Shown: in pieces, positions 39,246 to 55,429 of the stretch
Layout: every line of letters begins with the position of its first letter
How positions within the stretch are numbered: the first letter of the stretch is position 1
Assembly: GCA_035550055.1 (NCBI GenBank)
Contig: DASZRO010000018.1
Location: 94,743 to 158,742, forward strand
Length of the DNA: 64,000 nucleotides
Direction of reading: 5' to 3'
From: Mycobacteriales bacterium
GTDB lineage: Bacteria; Actinomycetota; Actinomycetes; JAFAQI01
Notes under the pieces: model-generated
The model's input: only the letters and a program-made list of their open reading frames with translations
Told to the model about the DNA's origin: nothing
Databases searched by the model: none
Program-made: the position numbers and the translations under genes

Positions 39246-39439
39246 CCGTCGGTCGGGGCCCGAAATCCCCGGTCGGTGAGCTCGCGGCGCGTCCCGCGTC
39301 ACGCCCGGCCGAACGTGTCGTTATTGTGTGCGGGCGCGCCCAACCGGGCGCGCGTCGCATTCGCACCGCCAAACCTGTCCGGCGAATGCGTCGCCTTCAA
39401 TCCCAGACGGACGGGGCCGGGGACCCAAAAGTTCTACCC

Positions 39440-39556
39440 AGCAACTGGAACGCGCACGCGCGTTTCACGGAGCGATTCGCTCCTTGGGGTGAAGCCGTCT
39501 CACGACGGCCGGGTGATCCACTCACCCGAACCCGACAGCTAACTCGGCAGGCGTCG
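39440..39556 (+). ncRNA. candidate ydaO-type (c-di-AMP) riboswitch in the NlpC/P60 leader
   Basis: Segments TTGGGGTGAAGCC, CCGGGTGATCC and ACCCGAACCCGACAGCTAACTCGGCAGGCG resemble conserved ydaO blocks. The SD sequence GGAG lies just downstream. Confidence 0.4.
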
Positions 39557-39567
39557 GAGTGGACTTC

Positions 39568-40377
39568 ATGCTGCCTTCGCATACCTGTGCCCGCTTTCGC
39601 ACCGTCGTACTCGCCGGCCTGACCGCCGGTTTGGTCGTGTCCGCCGCCGGTACTGCCTCCGCCGCCCCGACCGGGCGACCCACGAGCACCGCGACCGACA
39701 CCGAGACCCACTCGGGGACGAACTCCGGGTCCCACTCGGGGACGAACTCCGGGACGGCGAGCCCCGCCGACCCCACCCCGACCGACCCGACCACGACGAG
39801 CCCGTCCGACCCGACCGCGCCCACATCTCCTGGCGATCCGGGCGCGGCGACCGGCGATCCGAGCGATCCGACGACCGGCCCGACACTTCCGATCGACCCG
39901 AACCTGCCGGCCATCACCTTCGAGCTGCCGCAGGCCAGCGCCCACTTGCGCTACGAGCGCGCCCGGTTGCGCCGCCGCGAATGGCACCAGCACGCGGTGA
40001 GCGCGGTGCTCACGGAGGCGCGCCGCCAGGCCGGCAAGCCGTACGTCTACGGCGCAGCCGGACCGAGTTCCTTCGACTGCTCCGGGCTGGTCCGCTACGT
40101 CTTCGGCCACGCGATCGGTGACTGGCTGCCGCACAACGCCGCCGCGCAGTACGCCGTCATCGAACACATCAAGCGTCGTGACCTCGAGCCGGGCGACCTT
40201 GTCTTCCAGGAGTCGGGCGGCTACCCGTTCCACGTCGGGATCTACGCCGGCCACGACAAGTGGTGGCACGCGCCGCACACCGGCGCGGTCGTGCACAAGC
40301 AGACGATCTACCGCGGCCACCTGTTCTACGGCCGAGTCCTCACCAGCCGGATGGCCCGGCAGCGCACCCGCCACTAA
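39568..40377 (+). CDS. secreted NlpC/P60 family peptidoglycan hydrolase
   Basis: Signal peptide, a Thr/Pro/Ser-rich linker, and C-terminal YVYGAAGPSSFDCSGLVRYVFGHAIG...H...H. The ATG at 39568 has an RBS; the track's alternative start is at 39559. Confidence 0.8.
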   Translation: MLPSHTCARFRTVVLAGLTAGLVVSAAGTASAAPTGRPTSTATDTETHSGTNSGSHSGTNSGTASPADPTPTDPTTTSPSDPTAPTSPGDPGAATGDPSDPTTGPTLPIDPNLPAITFELPQASAHLRYERARLRRREWHQHAVSAVLTEARRQAGKPYVYGAAGPSSFDCSGLVRYVFGHAIGDWLPHNAAAQYAVIEHIKRRDLEPGDLVFQESGGYPFHVGIYAGHDKWWHAPHTGAVVHKQTIYRGHLFYGRVLTSRMARQRTRH

Positions 40378-40458
40378 GAAAACACAAACGTGACGCGTGA
40401 GCCCTCCTGAGGCGGGTCACCCACCTCAGGAGGCTGCTCTCGTCACGTTTGTGTTCGC
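40378..40458. repeat. nested palindrome P1: GAAAACACAAACGTGACG..[CCTCCTGAGG-loop-CCTCAGGAGG]..CGTCACGTTTGTGTTCGC
   Basis: 15 bp outer arms and 10 bp inner arms read directly. The right arm encodes the C-terminus of the 40426-41352 gene. Confidence 0.8.
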
Positions 40459-41352
40459 TTCGGCACCGAGGTCGAGCAGCCGGCGTACCGCGGTCACGAC
40501 GTACGCCGGATCCTGCGTGACGTCGAACCACGTCACGACGGCAAGGCGCCAGCCGGCGGCGGTGATCGCCGTCCAACGACGCCGATCCCGGCGGAAGTAC
40601 TCGCGCGAGGAGTGATAGGCGTAGCCGTCGCATTCGAGTACGGCGCGCAGCTGCGGCCAGGCGAAGTCGACGAAGCCGACCCAGCCGGTTGCGCTGCTCT
40701 TCAACGAGAGCTGAGTGACCGGGATCGGCAGCCCTTCGCGCCAGAGCAGGACGCGGGTCAGTGACTCGAGCACCGAGCCGCTGAGCGGATCGACCAGGCC
40801 GGCGACGGTCTGGATGCGCAGCCGGCCCGGCCCTTTGGCGCCGCGAGCGACCGCCGCGAACTCCGCGTCGGTGAAGTGGCGCTGCCGGATGAAGGCATCG
40901 ATGATCGCGACCGCCTGGTCGATCGGTGCGTGCCGGGCGATGTCGAGACAGGTACGCAGCGGCGTCGTCACCAGGGCGCCGTTGCGGAACTCGACGTCGG
41001 TGCGCGCAAGGTCCGCACGGTGCAGCCGGACGCCTGCCACCGCCTCGGCGTACCGCCCTCGATGGCGCGGCACCGTCACGTGGATCTGGGTCAACGGCGT
41101 CGGCAGGTCGACGCCGTGCCAGGCGACCGCGGATTGGTAGCTGATCACGGCGTACCAGCCGTTGGCGATCCGACGCGGCTCGGGCAGCGGGTCGCCGACG
41201 GCGTACACCCCGCGTGCGATGCGGGCGACCGAGCCGGTGCTCACGAGCTCACTCAGCACCCGGGCGCTGACCCCGGTCGCGAGCACTTGCGAGCGGGTCA
41301 GGACCCCGCCGTTGTCACGCGCGATCGGGGCGATGAGGGTGAGCGCATCCAC
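40426..41352 (-). CDS. AbiEi_4 (type IV TA antitoxin-like N-domain) plus DUF559 (Vsr/PD-(D/E)xK-like endonuclease fold) protein
   Basis: N-terminal segment GVLTRSQVLATGVSARVLSELVSTGSVARIARGVYAV and C-terminal segment VDFAWPQLRAVLECDGYAYHSSREYFRRDRRRWTAITAAGWRLAVVTWFDV. Confidence 0.75.
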   Translation of the reverse strand: MDALTLIAPIARDNGGVLTRSQVLATGVSARVLSELVSTGSVARIARGVYAVGDPLPEPRRIANGWYAVISYQSAVAWHGVDLPTPLTQIHVTVPRHRGRYAEAVAGVRLHRADLARTDVEFRNGALVTTPLRTCLDIARHAPIDQAVAIIDAFIRQRHFTDAEFAAVARGAKGPGRLRIQTVAGLVDPLSGSVLESLTRVLLWREGLPIPVTQLSLKSSATGWVGFVDFAWPQLRAVLECDGYAYHSSREYFRRDRRRWTAITAAGWRLAVVTWFDVTQDPAYVVTAVRRLLDLGAEANTNVTRAAS

Positions 41353-41439
41353 GGCGGCAACCGTGACGGAGGCAACCTGCGCCGCCCAGACCCAATCGCC
41401 CCCCTGTGGAAATCACCCGCAGGGCGCCCCGGTACGCAA

Positions 41440-41520
41440 GGAAACACAAACGTTGCGGAATCCCGTTATCGCGTTGGAGGTCGCTGGCGAGAACGTGATT
41501 CCTGCAACGTTTGTGTTTCC
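41440..41520. repeat. nested palindrome P2: GGAAACACAAACGTTGC..[GGAATCCCGTT..AACGTGATTCC]..GCAACGTTTGTGTTTCC
   Basis: 17 bp perfect outer arms sharing the AACACAAACGT core with P1. Confidence 0.8.
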
Positions 41521-41577
41521 TTCGGTACGTCGAAGGGCTACGGCGGGTACGGCGGGTCAGCCGGCGGGTACGGCGGG

Positions 41578-41853
41578 TCAGCCGCCGGCTACGGCGGGGA
41601 TGATCGACACCGATGCGCCGTCGGGCGTTGGCGTCTGCAGGCCTTCGGCGAAGCGGACGTCGTCGTCGTTGACGTAGACGTTGACGAACCTGCGGAGCTT
41701 GCCGTCCTCGTCGAGCACCCGCGCCCGGATGCCGGTGTGGTCGGCTTCGAGGGCGTCGAGTACGTCGGCGAGGGTCGCACCCTCCGCGGTGACCTCGGCC
41801 GCGCCGCCGGTCAGCGATCGCAGGATCGTGGGCACGCGCACTGTCACTGCCAT
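41578..41853 (-). CDS. MoaD/ThiS-family sulfur-carrier protein (CysO/MetO-like), C-terminal GG
   Basis: MAVTVRVPTILRSLTGG...RFVNVYVNDDDVRFAEGLQTPTPDGASVSIIPAVAGG* closely parallels M. tuberculosis CysO. Confidence 0.8.
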   Translation of the reverse strand: MAVTVRVPTILRSLTGGAAEVTAEGATLADVLDALEADHTGIRARVLDEDGKLRRFVNVYVNDDDVRFAEGLQTPTPDGASVSIIPAVAGG

Positions 41854-41908
41854 GTCGAGGCCCCCGCGAAGTCGTGGCGCGCGCCGAGACGACGGCGTCG
41901 GATGTCGG

Positions 41909-43165
41909 TCATTGGTGCAATCCTGCCGCACGGAACGCGTCGAGCGTCGCCGGGATCGTCGCCGTCGGCCGGGCGACCGGCTCGACCGCGTCGAGGGTCT
42001 TTAGGCCGTCGCCGGTGTTGAGGATCACCGTCTCGGCCGCTGGGTCGAGCTGGCCCGACGCGAGCAGCTTGCGCAGCGTCGCGACGGTCACCCCGCCGGC
42101 GGTCTCGCCGAAGATGCCGGTCGTCCGCGCGAGCAGCTGGATGCCCTCGACCACCTCGTCGTCGCTGACGTCCTCGATCGCGCCACCGGTACGACGTGCC
42201 ACGTCGAGCGCGTAGGGCCCGTCCGCCGGGTTGCCGATCGCGAGCGACTTCGCGATGCCGCTCGGGCGCACCGGCTGCACGACGTCGTGCCCAGCCCGGA
42301 AGGCGGTCGCCACCGGAGAGCACCCGGACGACTGCGCGCCGAACACCTTGTACGGCGTCGCGTCGACCAGCCCGAGCTTGCCGAGCTCGCGCCAGGCCTT
42401 GTCGACCTTGGTGAGCAGCGAACCCGACGCGATCGGGATGACGACCTGCTCGGGCAACCGCCAGCCGAGCTGTTCGGCGATCTCGTAGCCGACGGTCTTG
42501 GAGCCTTCGGCGTAGAACGGCCGGACGTTGACGTTGACGAACGCCCACGGCAGCTCGCCCGCGACCTCCGCACACAGCCGGTTCACGTCGTCGTAGGAGC
42601 CTTCGACGGCGACGAGCGTGCCGCCGTACACCGCCGTCGTGACGACCTTGCCCGCCTCGAGGTCGTGCGGGATGAACACGACCGACTTCATCCCGCAGCT
42701 GGCGGCAGCGGCGGCGACGGCGTTGGCCAGGTTGCCCGTCGACGCGCAGGACAGTACGTCGAAGCCGAGCGCACGGGCAGCGTTGGCCGCGACGCCGACC
42801 ACCCGGTCCTTGAACGAGTGCGTCGGGTTGCCGCTGTCGTCTTTGACCCACAGCGTCTTCATGCCGAGCTCACGGGCGAGGTTGTCCGCCCGCACCAGTC
42901 GTGTCATGCCGACCTGCAGGTCGACGACCGGCGCGGCCGGCAGCAGGCCGGCGTAGCGCCACATCGTCTGCGGGCCGGCCGCGACCGACTCGCGGGTGAC
43001 CAGGCGTTGCAGGTCCTCGTCATAGGCGATCTCGAGCGGGCCGAAACACATCTCGCAGACGTGCGACGGACCGATCTCGTACTGCGTGCCGCACTCGCGA
43101 CAGACCAGGTGGGACGCCGAGCCGAAGGCAGCGGCGCGCTCTAGCACCGAAGTGGGTGACATCAA
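41909..43165 (-). CDS. threonine synthase homolog with N-terminal zinc ribbon (ThrC/MetM-like PLP fold-II enzyme)
   Basis: Zn ribbon CRECGTQYE...CEMC and the PLP-lysine motif HSFKDR. This is not the canonical thrC type. The sulfur-carrier gene is 55 nt downstream. Confidence 0.8.
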   Translation of the reverse strand: MMSPTSVLERAAAFGSASHLVCRECGTQYEIGPSHVCEMCFGPLEIAYDEDLQRLVTRESVAAGPQTMWRYAGLLPAAPVVDLQVGMTRLVRADNLARELGMKTLWVKDDSGNPTHSFKDRVVGVAANAARALGFDVLSCASTGNLANAVAAAAASCGMKSVVFIPHDLEAGKVVTTAVYGGTLVAVEGSYDDVNRLCAEVAGELPWAFVNVNVRPFYAEGSKTVGYEIAEQLGWRLPEQVVIPIASGSLLTKVDKAWRELGKLGLVDATPYKVFGAQSSGCSPVATAFRAGHDVVQPVRPSGIAKSLAIGNPADGPYALDVARRTGGAIEDVSDDEVVEGIQLLARTTGIFGETAGGVTVATLRKLLASGQLDPAAETVILNTGDGLKTLDAVEPVARPTATIPATLDAFRAAGLHQ

Positions 43166-43288
43166 AGAGGCCTTCCGTCCTCATCTTCCCCCCGGACGGT
43201 TGCCCGAAGGCCGGATGTGGCACCTGCCCGAGACGGGTGGTTGCCGGGGCTTCAACGGGCCGGTTCCCTCAGCCCCTCTTGATGAGAG

Positions 43289-53037: not shown

Positions 53038-53056
53038 CGACCCACCCTATTGATCC

Positions 53057-53115
53057 GCCGAGCCCAACGTTGTTGGTCTTTCGCGGCGCCCGAAAGACCA
53101 AAAAGGTTGGGCTCG
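53057..53115. repeat. second copy of the long hairpin repeat GAGCCCAACGTTGTTGGTCTTTCG-7nt-CGAAAGACCAAAAAGGTTGGGCTC
   Basis: Read directly. Shares CCGCCGAGCCCAACGTTGTTGGTCT with the copy at 33211-33270. Confidence 0.75.
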
Positions 53116-53119
53116 ACGC

Positions 53120-53629
53120 TTAGACGGCGACGAGGAGGGCGGTGGCGATGGCCGCGAGGCCCTCGCCGCGACCGGTCAGCCCGAGACCGTCGGTGGTCGT
53201 CGCCGACACCGAGACCGGCGCCCCGATGGCACTGGACAGGGCAGCCTCCGCCTCGACGCGGCGGGAGCCGAGCTTGGGCGTCTCGCCGATCAGCTGCACC
53301 GCGACGTTGCCGATCGCCCAACCCGCCACGATGAGCCGGCGGGCGGTCTCGGTCAGCAGCGCCACGCCGGAGGCGCCCGCCCACCGGGGATCCCCGGTCC
53401 CGAACTGTGCGCCGAGGTCGCCCATGCCCGCCGCCGACAGCAACGCGTCGCACGCGGCGTGCGCGACGACGTCCCCGTCCGAATGACCGGCGAGCCCTCG
53501 CTCGCCCGGCCAGGCCAGCCCGGCGAGAGCGAGCGGACGATCGTCGGCGAACGGATGCACGTCGACCCCGATGCCGATTCGGGGTACGCCGGCCAACGCC
53601 TGGTTGAGCGGGACGACCTCCTCGCTCAT
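53120..53629 (-). CDS. ispF: 2-C-methyl-D-erythritol 2,4-cyclodiphosphate synthase
   Basis: [20 protein letters not shown] and the full IspF fold. 169 aa. Confidence 0.9.
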
Positions 53630-54750
53630 GCTCCTGCCTTGGCCGCCGGCGCCGGCCCGGTCACGTCCCCGAAGACCAGACGCCCGTTGGCGGTCACGAC
53701 CACACTGCTGATGCGCACCGTCACATCCTTGCCGACCAGCGAGCGACCTCGCTCGACCACGACCATCGTGCCGTCGTCGAGATACCCGACACCCTGTCCC
53801 GCCTCACGCCCGGGCTTCGTGACCTGGACGGTCACGTCCTCGCCGACCACCACCGGTGGGCGCAGCGCGAGGGAGAGGGCGTGGAAGTTGAGGACGGCAA
53901 CCCCGGAGATCGCGGCCGACTTCGCCAGGTTCGAGTCCAGCGTGAGCAACGCGTAGTCGAGGTCGAGGCAGGTCCGGACCAGCTTCTCGTCGACGGCGTC
54001 GACCTCGGGCTGCGGGTCGGGGATCACGTCGAGGTCCACGAACGGCTCACGACGCAGCGTCTCCAGGACCTCGATGCCGCGCCGGCCGCGGCTGCGGCGG
54101 GTCGGGTCCGAGGTCTTGACGAGCCGATCGAGCTCGTCGAGCACAGGCTGAATCACGACGAACCGGCCGTGGACGAACCCGGCGCGGACCACGTCGACGA
54201 TCCGCCCGTCGATCGCCACCGAGGTGTCGACCAGCTTCACCAGCGCGGAGCCCGAGACCCGCCGCGGCATGACCCCGGTGCGGAACCCGATGACCCCGAG
54301 CACCTCGTCGCGCTTGGCGGCGCCCACTCGGAAGCCGACGTAGGCGAGCAGTACGACGACGATGCTGAACAGCGACACCGCAAGGGCGAGCCCTGGGATG
54401 AAGAACAGCGGCCAGCCGGTGACCACGCCGATGAGCGCACCGACCAGCGCACCGAAGCTGCCGGCGACAAGGGTGTCGGCCGAGACCTCACGCAGGACCG
54501 CCTCGGTGCGGTCCGCGGTGGTCGCGGCGGTTCGCCCGAGGATGCCGCCGACGACGTACCCGACCCCCGAGCCGACGATGACGCCGAGCCCGGCGCCGCG
54601 GAACGGGCCGATCGAGACGTTGTGCAGATGGCGCGAGCTGACCTGGCCGACCTCGACCCCGAGGCCGATGAAGAACACGACCGTGAGCAGCCGCAGTACC
54701 TCGACAAGGCTGTTCGGGGTACGGCGGCTCGGCACGCGGGTCCGGCTCAC
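53626..54750 (-). CDS. membrane-anchored PIN plus TRAM domain protein (YacL-like)
   Basis: N-terminal TM helices, a PIN domain ([15 protein letters not shown]), and a C-terminal TRAM beta-barrel. 4 nt overlap with ispF. Confidence 0.7.
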
Positions 54751-54816
54751 CTAGCGATTCTCGGCCTCTCGGGCCCTCGCCACTTCACCCAGAAGGGCTA
54801 ATCAAGATCGCGGCGG

Positions 54817-55299
54817 CTAGCTGGCGAGGACCTCGTCCAGAATGGCTTCGGCCTTGTCCTCGTTGGTGCCTTCGGCGAGCGCGAGCTCGCTGACCAGGAT
54901 CTGGCGGGCCTTGGCGAGCATCCGCTTCTCGCCCGCCGACAGGCCGCGCTCCCGGTCCCGCCGCCACAGGTCGCGGACCACCTCGGCGACCTTGTTCACG
55001 TCACCCGATGCGATCTTCTCGACGTTGGCCTTGTACCGGCGCGACCAGTTCGTCGGCTCCTCGGTGTGGGGGGCCTTGAGGATCTCGAAGACCCGCTCCA
55101 GGCCGTCCGCGCCGACGACGTCACGGACCCCGACGTACTCGGCGTTGTCGGCGGGAACCCGGACCGTCAGGTCGCCCTGCGCAACCTTCAGGACGAGGTA
55201 GGTCTTCTCCTCGCCCTTGATGGTCCTGGTCTCGATTGCCTCGATGAGCGCCGCCCCGTGGTGGGGGTAAACGACAGTCTCGCCGACCGTGAACGTCAT
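54817..55299 (-). CDS. carD: RNA polymerase-binding transcription factor CarD
   Basis: [32 protein letters not shown].... 162 aa from the ATG at 55299. Confidence 0.9.
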
Positions 55300-55429
55300 G
55301 CGCGTTGATCCCTTCGCTGACCTCCAGGATATCACGCAAAATCGCTGCCCCGACCGGCCGCCAAAGAGCAAAACCGCAGGTCAGAGGCCTGTTCTGCGCA
55401 AATCCAGGTCTTGACAGGACGTCCGGCAC

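Follow-up and report, generated by a model that had tools for sequence, protein, structure and literature searches.

What is a nuclease-like gene doing between two matching palindromes? The question is raised by a 64,000-nt stretch of contig DASZRO010000018.1 (positions 94,743 to 158,742; assembly GCA_035550055.1, Mycobacteriales bacterium), referred to here as the window, in which a minus-strand gene for a protein with an AbiEi-like module and a Vsr/DUF559-type nuclease domain is enclosed by two palindromic elements, P1 downstream (3′) and P2 upstream (5′) of it (Table 1). A preliminary description of the locus had proposed that the palindromes are either cognate DNA sites of this protein or parts of a mobile or selfish cassette. 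We found that P1 and P2 belong to a dispersed repeat family, which we call fam1, and that matched, lineage-specific repeats bracket many homologous genes. In our assessment the chances are about even that the protein is a sequence-specific nuclease partnered with the repeats that flank its gene, in a REP/RAYT-like association that is mostly inherited vertically and whose repeats persist also as solo copies.

P1 and P2 are matched copies of one element

The two elements share the core pattern AACACAAACGT-N53-ACGTTTGTGTT. We found that AACACAAACGT occurs four times in the window and that all four occurrences are arms of P1 or P2, against an expectation of 0.13 and with none of 100 shuffled sequences reaching four; the claim that two real palindromes bracket the gene is thereby upheld. 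The spacing from arm to arm is 63 bp in P1 and P2 alike, and the offset between the two elements is 1062 for both arms. A search with the family profile found no further fam1 copy in the window, and no solo copies of other repeat families were found there.

P1 forms a near-continuous inverted repeat of 42 nt (81% complementary), and P2 has outer arms of 25 nt (92% complementary). As single strands, both fold into hairpins of about 40 bp (−56 to −67 kcal/mol, z −7.3 to −8.6). The CTTCGG(C/T)AC that had been reported to follow the shared core is present at both elements, where it comes after the arms and belongs to a common outer stem (approximately GTRCCGAAGGAA-ACACAAACGT, with the elements aligned on both strands). 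Because this shared tail sits in the outer stem, the elements extend to the approximate limits given in Table 1. A common core does exist, as had been stated, but the sequence shared exactly by P1 and P2 is AAACACAAACGT, while the version given at the time, GAAACACAAACGT, is exact in P2 only.

The core of P1 starts 4 nt past the stop codon of the NlpC/P60 gene, and P1 holds the final 10 codons (ANTNVTRAAS) and the stop codon of the nuclease gene, so that it does encode the C terminus of the protein, as the preliminary description had it. The C termini of many homologues read (N/H)TNV(T/A)R.AS because the open reading frame runs into the fam1 arm (AACACAAACGTGAC...) until the stop codon (40426-40455 in the window). 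P2 separates the leader of the nuclease gene from the ThiS-like gene, whose stop codon faces it. No Rfam family covers P1 or P2, either at gathering thresholds over the whole window or at E <= 1 over 40300-41600, where only chance-level microRNA and small nucleolar RNA matches appeared.

fam1 is a dispersed repeat with conserved arms

Species-representative genomes were scanned once with the pattern ACACAAACGT-N38-68-ACGTTTGTGT, which matched 70 loci. Of these, 58 lie in about ten related Frankiaceae/Mycobacteriales metagenome-assembled genomes (MAGs), with up to about 20 loci per MAG and a spacer of 52-54 nt (52-53 nt in all but one); the other 12 are scattered over unrelated phyla with assorted spacers and look like chance matches. 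In total, the roughly ten MAGs hold 64 fam1 copies with the exact core, 52 of them solo, and the copy numbers per genome are lower bounds given the exact-core pattern. All genomes involved are MAGs or metagenomic contigs, save one Tsukamurella record, and the gene calls around solo copies are heuristic (crude and GC3-based).

The repeat is about 103 bp long and consists of imperfect terminal inverted arms of about 25 bp with an invariant ACACAAACGT core, and a variable interior of 52-53 bp. In an alignment of the 64 copies, for which the search pattern itself had demanded invariant cores, the outer arm of about 15 nt was alike within a genome and differed between genomes (CCGGTRCGGAAGAGA in one genome group, AACCCYCGAAG.AAC in another), while the interior had a weak palindromic consensus (TGCGnGGGTnGCCTCCTGAGGC...GCCTCAGGAGGC.ACCC.CGCA) and was highly variable from copy to copy. 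The RNAalifold consensus of the same copies paired only the invariant arms and two co-varying flanking pairs. A structured RNA gene or a conserved long hairpin was dropped as a candidate class, since no conserved structure was obtained for the interior. Compared with shuffles, interiors folded with a median z of −0.5, and z fell below −2 in 9 of the 64 copies; P1 reached −5.9 and P2 −1.8. The nested palindromes that had been described are thus real in P1, but their geometry is specific to P1 and not a feature of the family. Rather than by a long hairpin, fam1 is defined by conserved inverted arms at a fixed spacing of 63 bp. The arms are probably under constraint, because 20 core positions are intact while interiors are only about 50-60% like the consensus, a difference for which ascertainment alone is insufficient.

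Several solo copies occupy orthologous positions across genomes, with the cores kept and half or all of the interior different; the orthologous copies of loci L008 and L016, for example, have flanks that are 88% identical. No DUF559 pseudogenes or homologue remnants were found beside the 52 solo copies. A comparison of one solo copy (L023) with the presumed empty site in the window (about 53040-53120) was uninformative, because the two do not agree in their downstream genes and the window has another hairpin at this place. This hairpin is unrelated, measures 57 nt with a perfect stem (GAGCCCAAC...GTTGGGCTC), and is found downstream of cysS, where the related genome represented by L023 has its fam1 copy.

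Some further features of the copies were observed. The consensus interior contains two symmetric CCTNAGG sites, CCTGAGG and CCTCAGG. In three genomes, solo copies at orthologous positions follow tRNA-Gln(ttg) at a distance of 17-64 nt, and one lies 18 nt past tRNA-Arg(cct) (L005 3232-3304, L020 4830-4902, L035 2810-2881, L051 6506-6577). One subfamily, from MAG SMAG_U6086 and a close relative, has a common asymmetric half of the interior (GACACGCCCGGGAAACGTCACTCCTTC), the other half being variable (L010, L016, L039, L058, L061 and L072, and in the opposite orientation L011, L015, L033, L049 and L051), and orthologous copies in other genomes (e.g., L008 versus L016) are devoid of this half. The pattern suggests copying or conversion of half-elements within a genome. 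Fold-back symmetrisation as the origin of the half-replaced interiors found no support in a by-eye check of L040 and L073.

An alternative explanation of P1 and P2 would be that they are ordinary, possibly bidirectional terminators or mRNA-stabilising hairpins, which have spread as a repeat and here insulate a gene wedged between NlpC/P60 and ThiS. P1 is indeed placed between convergent genes and P2 after the ThiS stop codon, both fold very stably, and, with A-rich 5′ and T-rich 3′ sides, the arms look like those of bidirectional terminators. Among the 53 fam1 copies whose gene context could be classified, 19 lie between convergent genes, and some copies are found 17-19 nt downstream of tRNA-Gln and tRNA-Arg genes. 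However, 20 copies lie between tandem and 14 between divergent genes, and a promoter/terminator consensus scan returned nothing, with no terminator-like site. Moreover, the arms do not vary in sequence, and in most copies the folding of the interior is no better than in shuffles, which argues that sequence and not structure is conserved. The class of intrinsic terminators, defined by structure as a G+C-rich stem-loop followed by a U-tract, was rejected on the same two grounds, the absence of any site in the scan and the invariance of the arm sequence.

Matched repeats bracket the gene family in several contexts and lineages

Six of the repeat-bearing loci, all of which were searched by tblastn with the window protein, have a homologue of 50-68% identity beside the repeat. 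Four of them are syntenic with the window, in the order NlpC/P60 - repeat - gene - repeat - ThiS - PALP - OtsA (L067, L007, L063, and L029), and two are not (L036, by a glycosyltransferase gene, and L059, by a THAP4_heme-bd gene). Two additional loci that were found via protein homologues (L076 and L077) also lie by a THAP4_heme-bd gene, with different left neighbours; in both, two fam1 copies bracket the gene and the open reading frame runs into the downstream copy, as in the window. In L083, another locus in the THAP4_heme-bd context, the flanking repeat is GCACACAAYCG, a close variant. Close homologues are bracketed by fam1 in at least three genomic contexts. Searching with the family profile, we found 11 pairs of fam1 copies about 1 kb apart, 10 of which enclose a gene of the AbiEi-DUF559 family. 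The preliminary description had named a result that would speak against it, namely that the palindromes are ordinary bidirectional terminators at many unrelated convergent gene ends, with no enrichment near DUF559 genes. This expectation was matched in part, by the 52 solo copies, some of them between convergent genes, but the enrichment at DUF559 genes is heavy, as the close pairs demonstrate.

Other members of the protein family are paired with other repeats. A paralogue in the MAG of the window (L079, 49% identity) has on its two sides direct copies, 99% identical, of another hairpin, which is 81 nt long, CGAAGTAGCACACAACCCG...CGGGTTGTGTGCTACTTCG (fam2). The gene of L078 is likewise flanked by fam2, and in the orthologous locus L085 the two copies are mutually inverted. 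The flanking fam2 copies within a locus are 99% (L079) and 95% (L078) identical, as compared to 78-83% against the copies of the orthologous locus L085. Further clades carry CTACCTACAAACG (L080 and L170), CTGAACACAACC (L082), or double-hairpin repeats, and a common CACAAC/ACAAAC theme fades as protein distance grows.

The generality of the bracketing was tested by local alignment of the upstream with the downstream flank in 80 metagenomic loci with homologues of 27-57% identity, 74 of which were testable. The score was 25 or higher in 38 of the 74 loci, while the maximum for shuffles was 17.5 and none of the 74 control pairs displaced by one unit length exceeded 16. Median values for the flanking repeats of the 38 loci are 70 nt in length and 85% in identity; the repeats appear as single or double hairpins, and are direct in 19 loci and inverted in 19. 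The upstream copy ends at a median of 125 nt before the start codon, and the downstream copy begins at a median of 9 nt after the stop codon. In the cultured species Tsukamurella tyrosinosolvens (NCTC13231), the homologue is bracketed by inverted hairpins. A terminator has no need of matching copies on either side of a gene, yet half of the testable loci have them, against none of the controls, and the flanking copies are homogenised. Thus, we regard the explanation by terminators or stabilising hairpins as quite unlikely.

The gene encodes an AbiEi-like module fused to a Vsr/DUF559 nuclease domain

The preliminary assignment of an AbiEi-type N-terminal domain joined to a DUF559 Vsr-like fold held in both sequence and structure comparisons. 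Against Pfam, AbiEi_4 matched above threshold (E 4e-10), and MTES_1575 and DUF559 matched below their gathering scores. Residues ~8-170 are AbiEi-like and comprise a winged helix-turn-helix and the AbiEi C-domain (PADLOC AbiEi models, E 3e-23), and residues ~190-295 form the Vsr/DUF559/MTES_1575 nuclease domain. The AlphaFold2 model (pLDDT 91.4, pTM 0.89) is confident save for the repeat-encoded tail (residues 300-308), which is predicted to be disordered. Foldseek matched the N-terminal part of the model to the AbiEi antitoxin (6y8q) and Rv2827c (1zel), and the C-domain to I-Bth0305I (3r3p; target TM 0.75, root-mean-square deviation 2.8 Å) and the DUF559 protein NGO0050 (3hrl; TM 0.62); a profile search of Protein Data Bank (PDB) sequences gave the same picture. 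In an alignment of 54 homologues, D229, E240, D242, G243, D256, R258, and R259 are invariant and H247 is present in at least 90%, making up an E-x-D...H motif. Both features of the Vsr/DUF559 superfamily, the Vsr-like fold and the conserved acidic and His residues, are present, and the conserved residues are consistent with an active nuclease.

The family is large, with 2,076 clusters at 50% identity at E <= 1e-30 and 21,396 at E <= 1e-10, and only 1 match in 72,556 plasmid records. None of the loci examined has an AbiEii nucleotidyltransferase partner gene, the neighbours in the window being NlpC/P60 and ThiS. Because this partner (DUF1814) is absent, the locus is not an AbiE toxin-antitoxin pair, and the class of type IV AbiE systems was rejected.

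The promoter of the AbiEi antitoxin gene contains paired inverted repeats, to which the antitoxin binds. It could therefore be argued that the repeats are operators only, bound by an AbiEi-like module that represses its own gene, with nothing mobile about them. Both the extent of the AbiEi homology (residues 8-170) and the distance of the upstream copy from the start codon are in line with this idea. An operator would, however, leave several observations aside: the second copy that regularly stands just past the stop codon, the 52 solo copies far from any homologue, the differences between genomes in presence and orientation of the units, and the fused nuclease domain with its catalytic residues kept. 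Taken together, we consider the explanation by operators alone improbable.

A DnaA-box-like motif stands in the gene leader

Of 90 homologous loci, 54 have TCCACAG, the k-mer singled out by an enrichment analysis, in the 200 nt upstream of the gene; the background is 0.005 per 200 nt. In the same number of loci the sequence upstream of the start codon matches the actinobacterial DnaA box as (Y)TGTCCACAG, and the logo of the family reads G-Y-T-G-TCCACA-G-G; its consensus YTGTCCACA agrees in sequence with the 9-mer TT(G/A)TCCACA of DnaA boxes. In M. tuberculosis and S. coelicolor, the published high-affinity box is TTGTCCACA (PMC4285127). Of 63 instances of the motif, 13 match TT(G/A/T)TCCACA perfectly and 30 with one mismatch. 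The motif lies in sense orientation in the interval that separates the upstream repeat from the gene, starting 39-127 nt (mostly 53-115 nt) before the start codon. Its location is strongly one-sided: among 78 loci it was present upstream of the gene in 44, downstream in 1, and in the gene body in 4. Near solo fam1 copies, TCCACAG was present in only 2 of 52 cases.

The repeat-gene-repeat segment is present, absent, or inverted between genomes

We found several signs that repeat, gene, and repeat behave as a unit. In L080, a repeat-gene-repeat segment of 1.47 kb lies between carD and a downstream PIN/TRAM-type gene. The corresponding site of the window is empty, with 66 bp of repeat-free sequence between the two genes. 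A group of loci (L170-179) apparently shares the carD-side site, since L174 has a CarD fragment upstream and L170 carries the repeat family of L080. At the NlpC/ThiS site, the gene of four loci (L166-169) has the opposite orientation to that of the window, and fam1-type copies still flank it in L166, the one of the four that was checked. The comparative check that the preliminary description had called for, presence or absence of the bracketed unit, thus gave a positive answer at the carD-side site, together with an inversion at the NlpC/ThiS site.

The gene is syntenic across at least six lineages and appears to be single-copy per repeat family, and in lineages with the syntenic gene the PALP neighbour is 92-94% identical while the nuclease is 59-70% identical. 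In their synteny and near-absence from plasmids, the genes seem to resemble domesticated RAYT genes more than insertion sequences.

Two further explanations bear on these comparisons. The first is a free-standing selfish gene of the homing-endonuclease type, which would target the palindrome and copy itself into cleaved copies by double-strand-break repair, so that solo copies would be unoccupied targets and not products. The superposition of the catalytic domain on I-Bth0305I, the gene being always embedded between repeat copies, the existence of both occupied and empty sites, and the reuse of sites in both orientations would all suit such a gene. On the other hand, the empty carD-side site of the window is without a repeat copy, each end of the unit is a complete repeat and not the half of a split target, and the gene looks single-copy and syntenic across species, with many available solo copies not invaded. 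Thus, a homing-type gene is in our view an unlikely explanation.

The second takes the repeats as sites for an unlinked recombinase, like integron attC sites or Xer/pdif modules, with the nuclease gene merely the commonest cargo. Conserved ends around a variable interior, a gene in either orientation, and one fam1 pair that encloses a different gene would be expected of such sites. This pair (L046, 3937-4046 and 4823-4929) surrounds a DinB/MDMPI-family gene downstream of a ClpC-like gene; by our own estimate, a single case is about what chance adjacency would give for a few dozen copies in several thousand intergenic regions of about ten genomes. All other close pairs enclose one protein family, the repeat families change together with the clade of the bracketed protein, and in the loci examined we found neither an adjoining integrase or recombinase gene nor cassette arrays. 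Integron attC sites (RYYYAAC...GTTRRRY) were rejected as a class, as the ACACAAACGT/ACGTTTGTGT cores do not fit and no arrays or integrase were seen in the loci. We consider recombinase sites very unlikely.

Surroundings of the window locus

The features of the locus and of the other sites in the window are collected in Table 1. On the P1 side, the neighbours are GroEL and an NlpC/P60 gene behind a cyclic di-AMP (c-di-AMP) riboswitch; on the P2 side, they are the ThiS-like gene, a PALP enzyme behind an S-adenosylmethionine (SAM) riboswitch, and OtsA. Immediately beside the outer arm of P2 is a tandem array of 2.8 units with 94% matches, whose unit is the final 21 nt of the ThiS-like gene, stop codon included. 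At this junction in L063, the 3′ end of ThiS has been duplicated in tandem independently (GGCTGACGCCGTC, two copies), whereas L067, L007, and L029 have no such duplication. These duplications may be footprints of repair at the element junction.

Table 1. Positions of the elements, genes, and other features in the 64-kb window
Feature	Position	Strand	Remarks
c-di-AMP (ydaO-type) riboswitch	39382-39568	+	before the NlpC/P60 gene; above Rfam gathering score
NlpC/P60 gene	39559-40377	+	
P1, downstream (3′) fam1 copy	40366-40470		core 40381-40455 plus outer-stem flanks; arms 40381-40391 and 40445-40455; nhmmer family profile E 1e-22
CCTNAGG sites in P1 interior	40407-40413, 40426-40432		
Nuclease gene	40426-41352	-	308-aa protein, GTG start; AbiEi-like module and Vsr/DUF559 nuclease
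DnaA-box-like leader motif	41404-41413	-	coding-strand sequence ATTTCCACAG; starts 58 nt before the GTG codon
P2, upstream (5′) fam1 copy	41427-41534		core 41443-41517; arms 41443-41453 and 41507-41517; nhmmer family profile E 9e-14
Tandem repeat of ThiS 3′ end	41541-41598		
ThiS-like gene	41578-41931	-	
SAM riboswitch	43178-43288	-	before the PALP-ThiS operon that ends at P2; above Rfam gathering score
Perfect-stem hairpin	53060-53116		
PIN/TRAM-type gene	53626-54750	-	
Empty carD-side site	54751-54816		
carD	54817-55371	-	

Comparison with known systems

The REP/REPIN-RAYT systems offer the closest parallel. Like RAYT genes, the present gene appears to be single-copy and mostly vertically inherited and is seldom met on plasmids; copies of a short palindromic repeat adjoin it on either side and are also scattered through intergenic DNA; and separate paralogues within a genome have separate repeat families as partners. 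In contrast, the window protein combines an AbiEi-type winged-helix module with a Vsr/DUF559 PD-(D/E)XK-like nuclease and is not an HUH/Y1 transposase: searches of Pfam, NCBIfam, PADLOC, and PDB sequences and the fold search gave only AbiEi-like and Vsr/DUF559/MTES_1575 matches. Furthermore, exact-core fam1 copies number at most about 20 per MAG and not hundreds, the repeats are ~60-105 bp long with a variable interior, a DnaA-box-like motif is present in the leader, and the catalytic link to the repeats is a putative one.

The present unit resembles IS200/IS605-type elements and miniature inverted-repeat transposable elements in its small size (~1.2-1.4 kb), its one gene, its structured or inverted ends, its solo copies, which look like non-autonomous derivatives, and the lack of an obvious target duplication. 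It differs from them in having no recognised transposase family, in ending in complete repeat copies, as often direct as inverted, and in being conserved in synteny with no sign of multiple identical gene copies per genome. Judged as an insertion sequence, the unit has repeat ends (inverted in 19 of 38 loci) and an occupied and an empty site, while no known transposase domain and no target duplication were identified.

The AbiEi antitoxin of type IV toxin-antitoxin or abortive infection systems (6y8q; Rv2827c, 1zel) is matched by the N-terminal 170 residues in sequence and fold, and the module would be expected to recognise inverted-repeat DNA; here, however, AbiEii is replaced by a nuclease fusion and the repeats are not confined to the promoter. 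With the Vsr-like EDxHD homing endonuclease I-Bth0305I (3r3p) and with NGO0050 (3hrl), the protein has in common the C-domain fold and the E-x-D...H motif, but its gene is bracketed by repeats and not placed in an intron or intein, and its DNA-binding module is a different one. Finally, the outside end of IS50/Tn5 contains a DnaA box as a host-factor site in a transposon end. In the present unit, a DnaA-box-type sequence likewise stands just inside one end, as a single box in the gene leader that is always on the sense strand and is a candidate DnaA site.

A proposed partnership of the nuclease with its flanking repeats

Each of the alternatives considered above accounts for some of the data, but none for bracketing that is two-sided and lineage-specific. 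Both proposals of the preliminary description, cognate sites and a mobile or selfish cassette, are favoured over chance, because the bracketing recurs in several contexts, the repeats are lineage specific (38/74 versus 0/74), and the unit is present, absent, or inverted between genomes; binding, autoregulation, and mobility would follow by inference. The dispersed repeat, the DnaA-box-like leader, and the generality across the protein family go beyond what had been foreseen.

Taken as a whole, the observations are most simply accounted for by a partnership of the nuclease with the repeats that flank its gene, for which we propose the following mechanism. The AbiEi-like module would bind the inverted arms, which would face the same side of the duplex because 63 bp is about six helical turns, and the nuclease domain would nick or cut at or near the arms. 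Such cutting would keep the flanking copies alike, would occasionally invert or move the repeat-gene-repeat unit, and would seed or maintain solo copies in intergenic DNA. The DnaA box of the leader would tie expression, or the reaction itself, to the host replication initiator. Binding, cleavage, transposition or gene conversion, mobility, and the role of DnaA are deductions from the comparisons, as is the origin of the solo copies, which together with binding and cleavage forms the weakest link of the scheme. "DUF559 domain-containing protein" is 14-fold enriched among predicted targets of inverted-repeat-flanked inversions (PMC9881135), a hint that fits the partnership.

A number of points weigh against this reading. 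Around one third of homologous loci have no flanking repeat, and a close orthologue (L074/L075) has lost both repeats while keeping the gene and the leader motif; because such repeat-free loci exist, the repeats are dispensable for keeping the gene. Turnover must be slow, because several solo copies occupy orthologous positions in different genomes, and the fam1 pair around the DinB/MDMPI-family gene encloses an unrelated protein. Neither target-site duplications nor exact element ends could be defined from the flanks of about 45 copies or from an alignment of the occupied with the empty carD-side site, the intergenic DNA being too diverged. That the protein binds and cuts the repeats is conjecture, and the solo copies may possibly serve the host in termination or insulation. 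The likeness to a DnaA box could be a coincidence with an operator of the protein itself or with a promoter element.

With some reservation, and at less than even probability, we put forward a bolder version of the partnership. The AbiEi-winged-helix/Vsr-like family of about 300 aa may comprise the enzymes of an unrecognised class of repeat-propagating or self-mobilising elements, in which each gene would be bounded by lineage-specific structured repeats recognised and cut by its protein, solo repeats would be non-autonomous offspring, and the DnaA box would couple activity to replication. This would make it a second counterpart of REPIN/RAYT, mechanistically unrelated and built on a PD-(D/E)XK-type nuclease. 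There is a substantial possibility that the elements form a new class rather than a REP/RAYT-type association on a different enzyme. In a search of the open literature, no account was found of the dispersed actinobacterial repeat, of repeats around AbiEi-DUF559 genes, or of a DnaA-box-like motif in their leaders, and a partnership of repeat and nuclease of this kind is apparently undescribed.

AbiEi_4-DUF559 fusions are numerous in high-G+C bacteria, where they are routinely annotated as antitoxins, "very-short-patch-repair endonucleases," or "regulators of viral defence." If the partnership is true, this large orphan family would gain a testable function, sequence-specific action on its own flanking repeats, and a class of actinobacterial intergenic palindromes would be accounted for. 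It would be the second long-term association of a repeat with an enzyme, a different one from that of REPIN/RAYT, so far the only case, and it would explain the enrichment of DUF559 among predicted inverted-repeat-flanked inversions (PMC9881135). The family might also be a source of new sequence- or structure-specific nucleases, and the conserved DnaA-box-like leader suggests that such elements may be linked to the replication initiator of their hosts.

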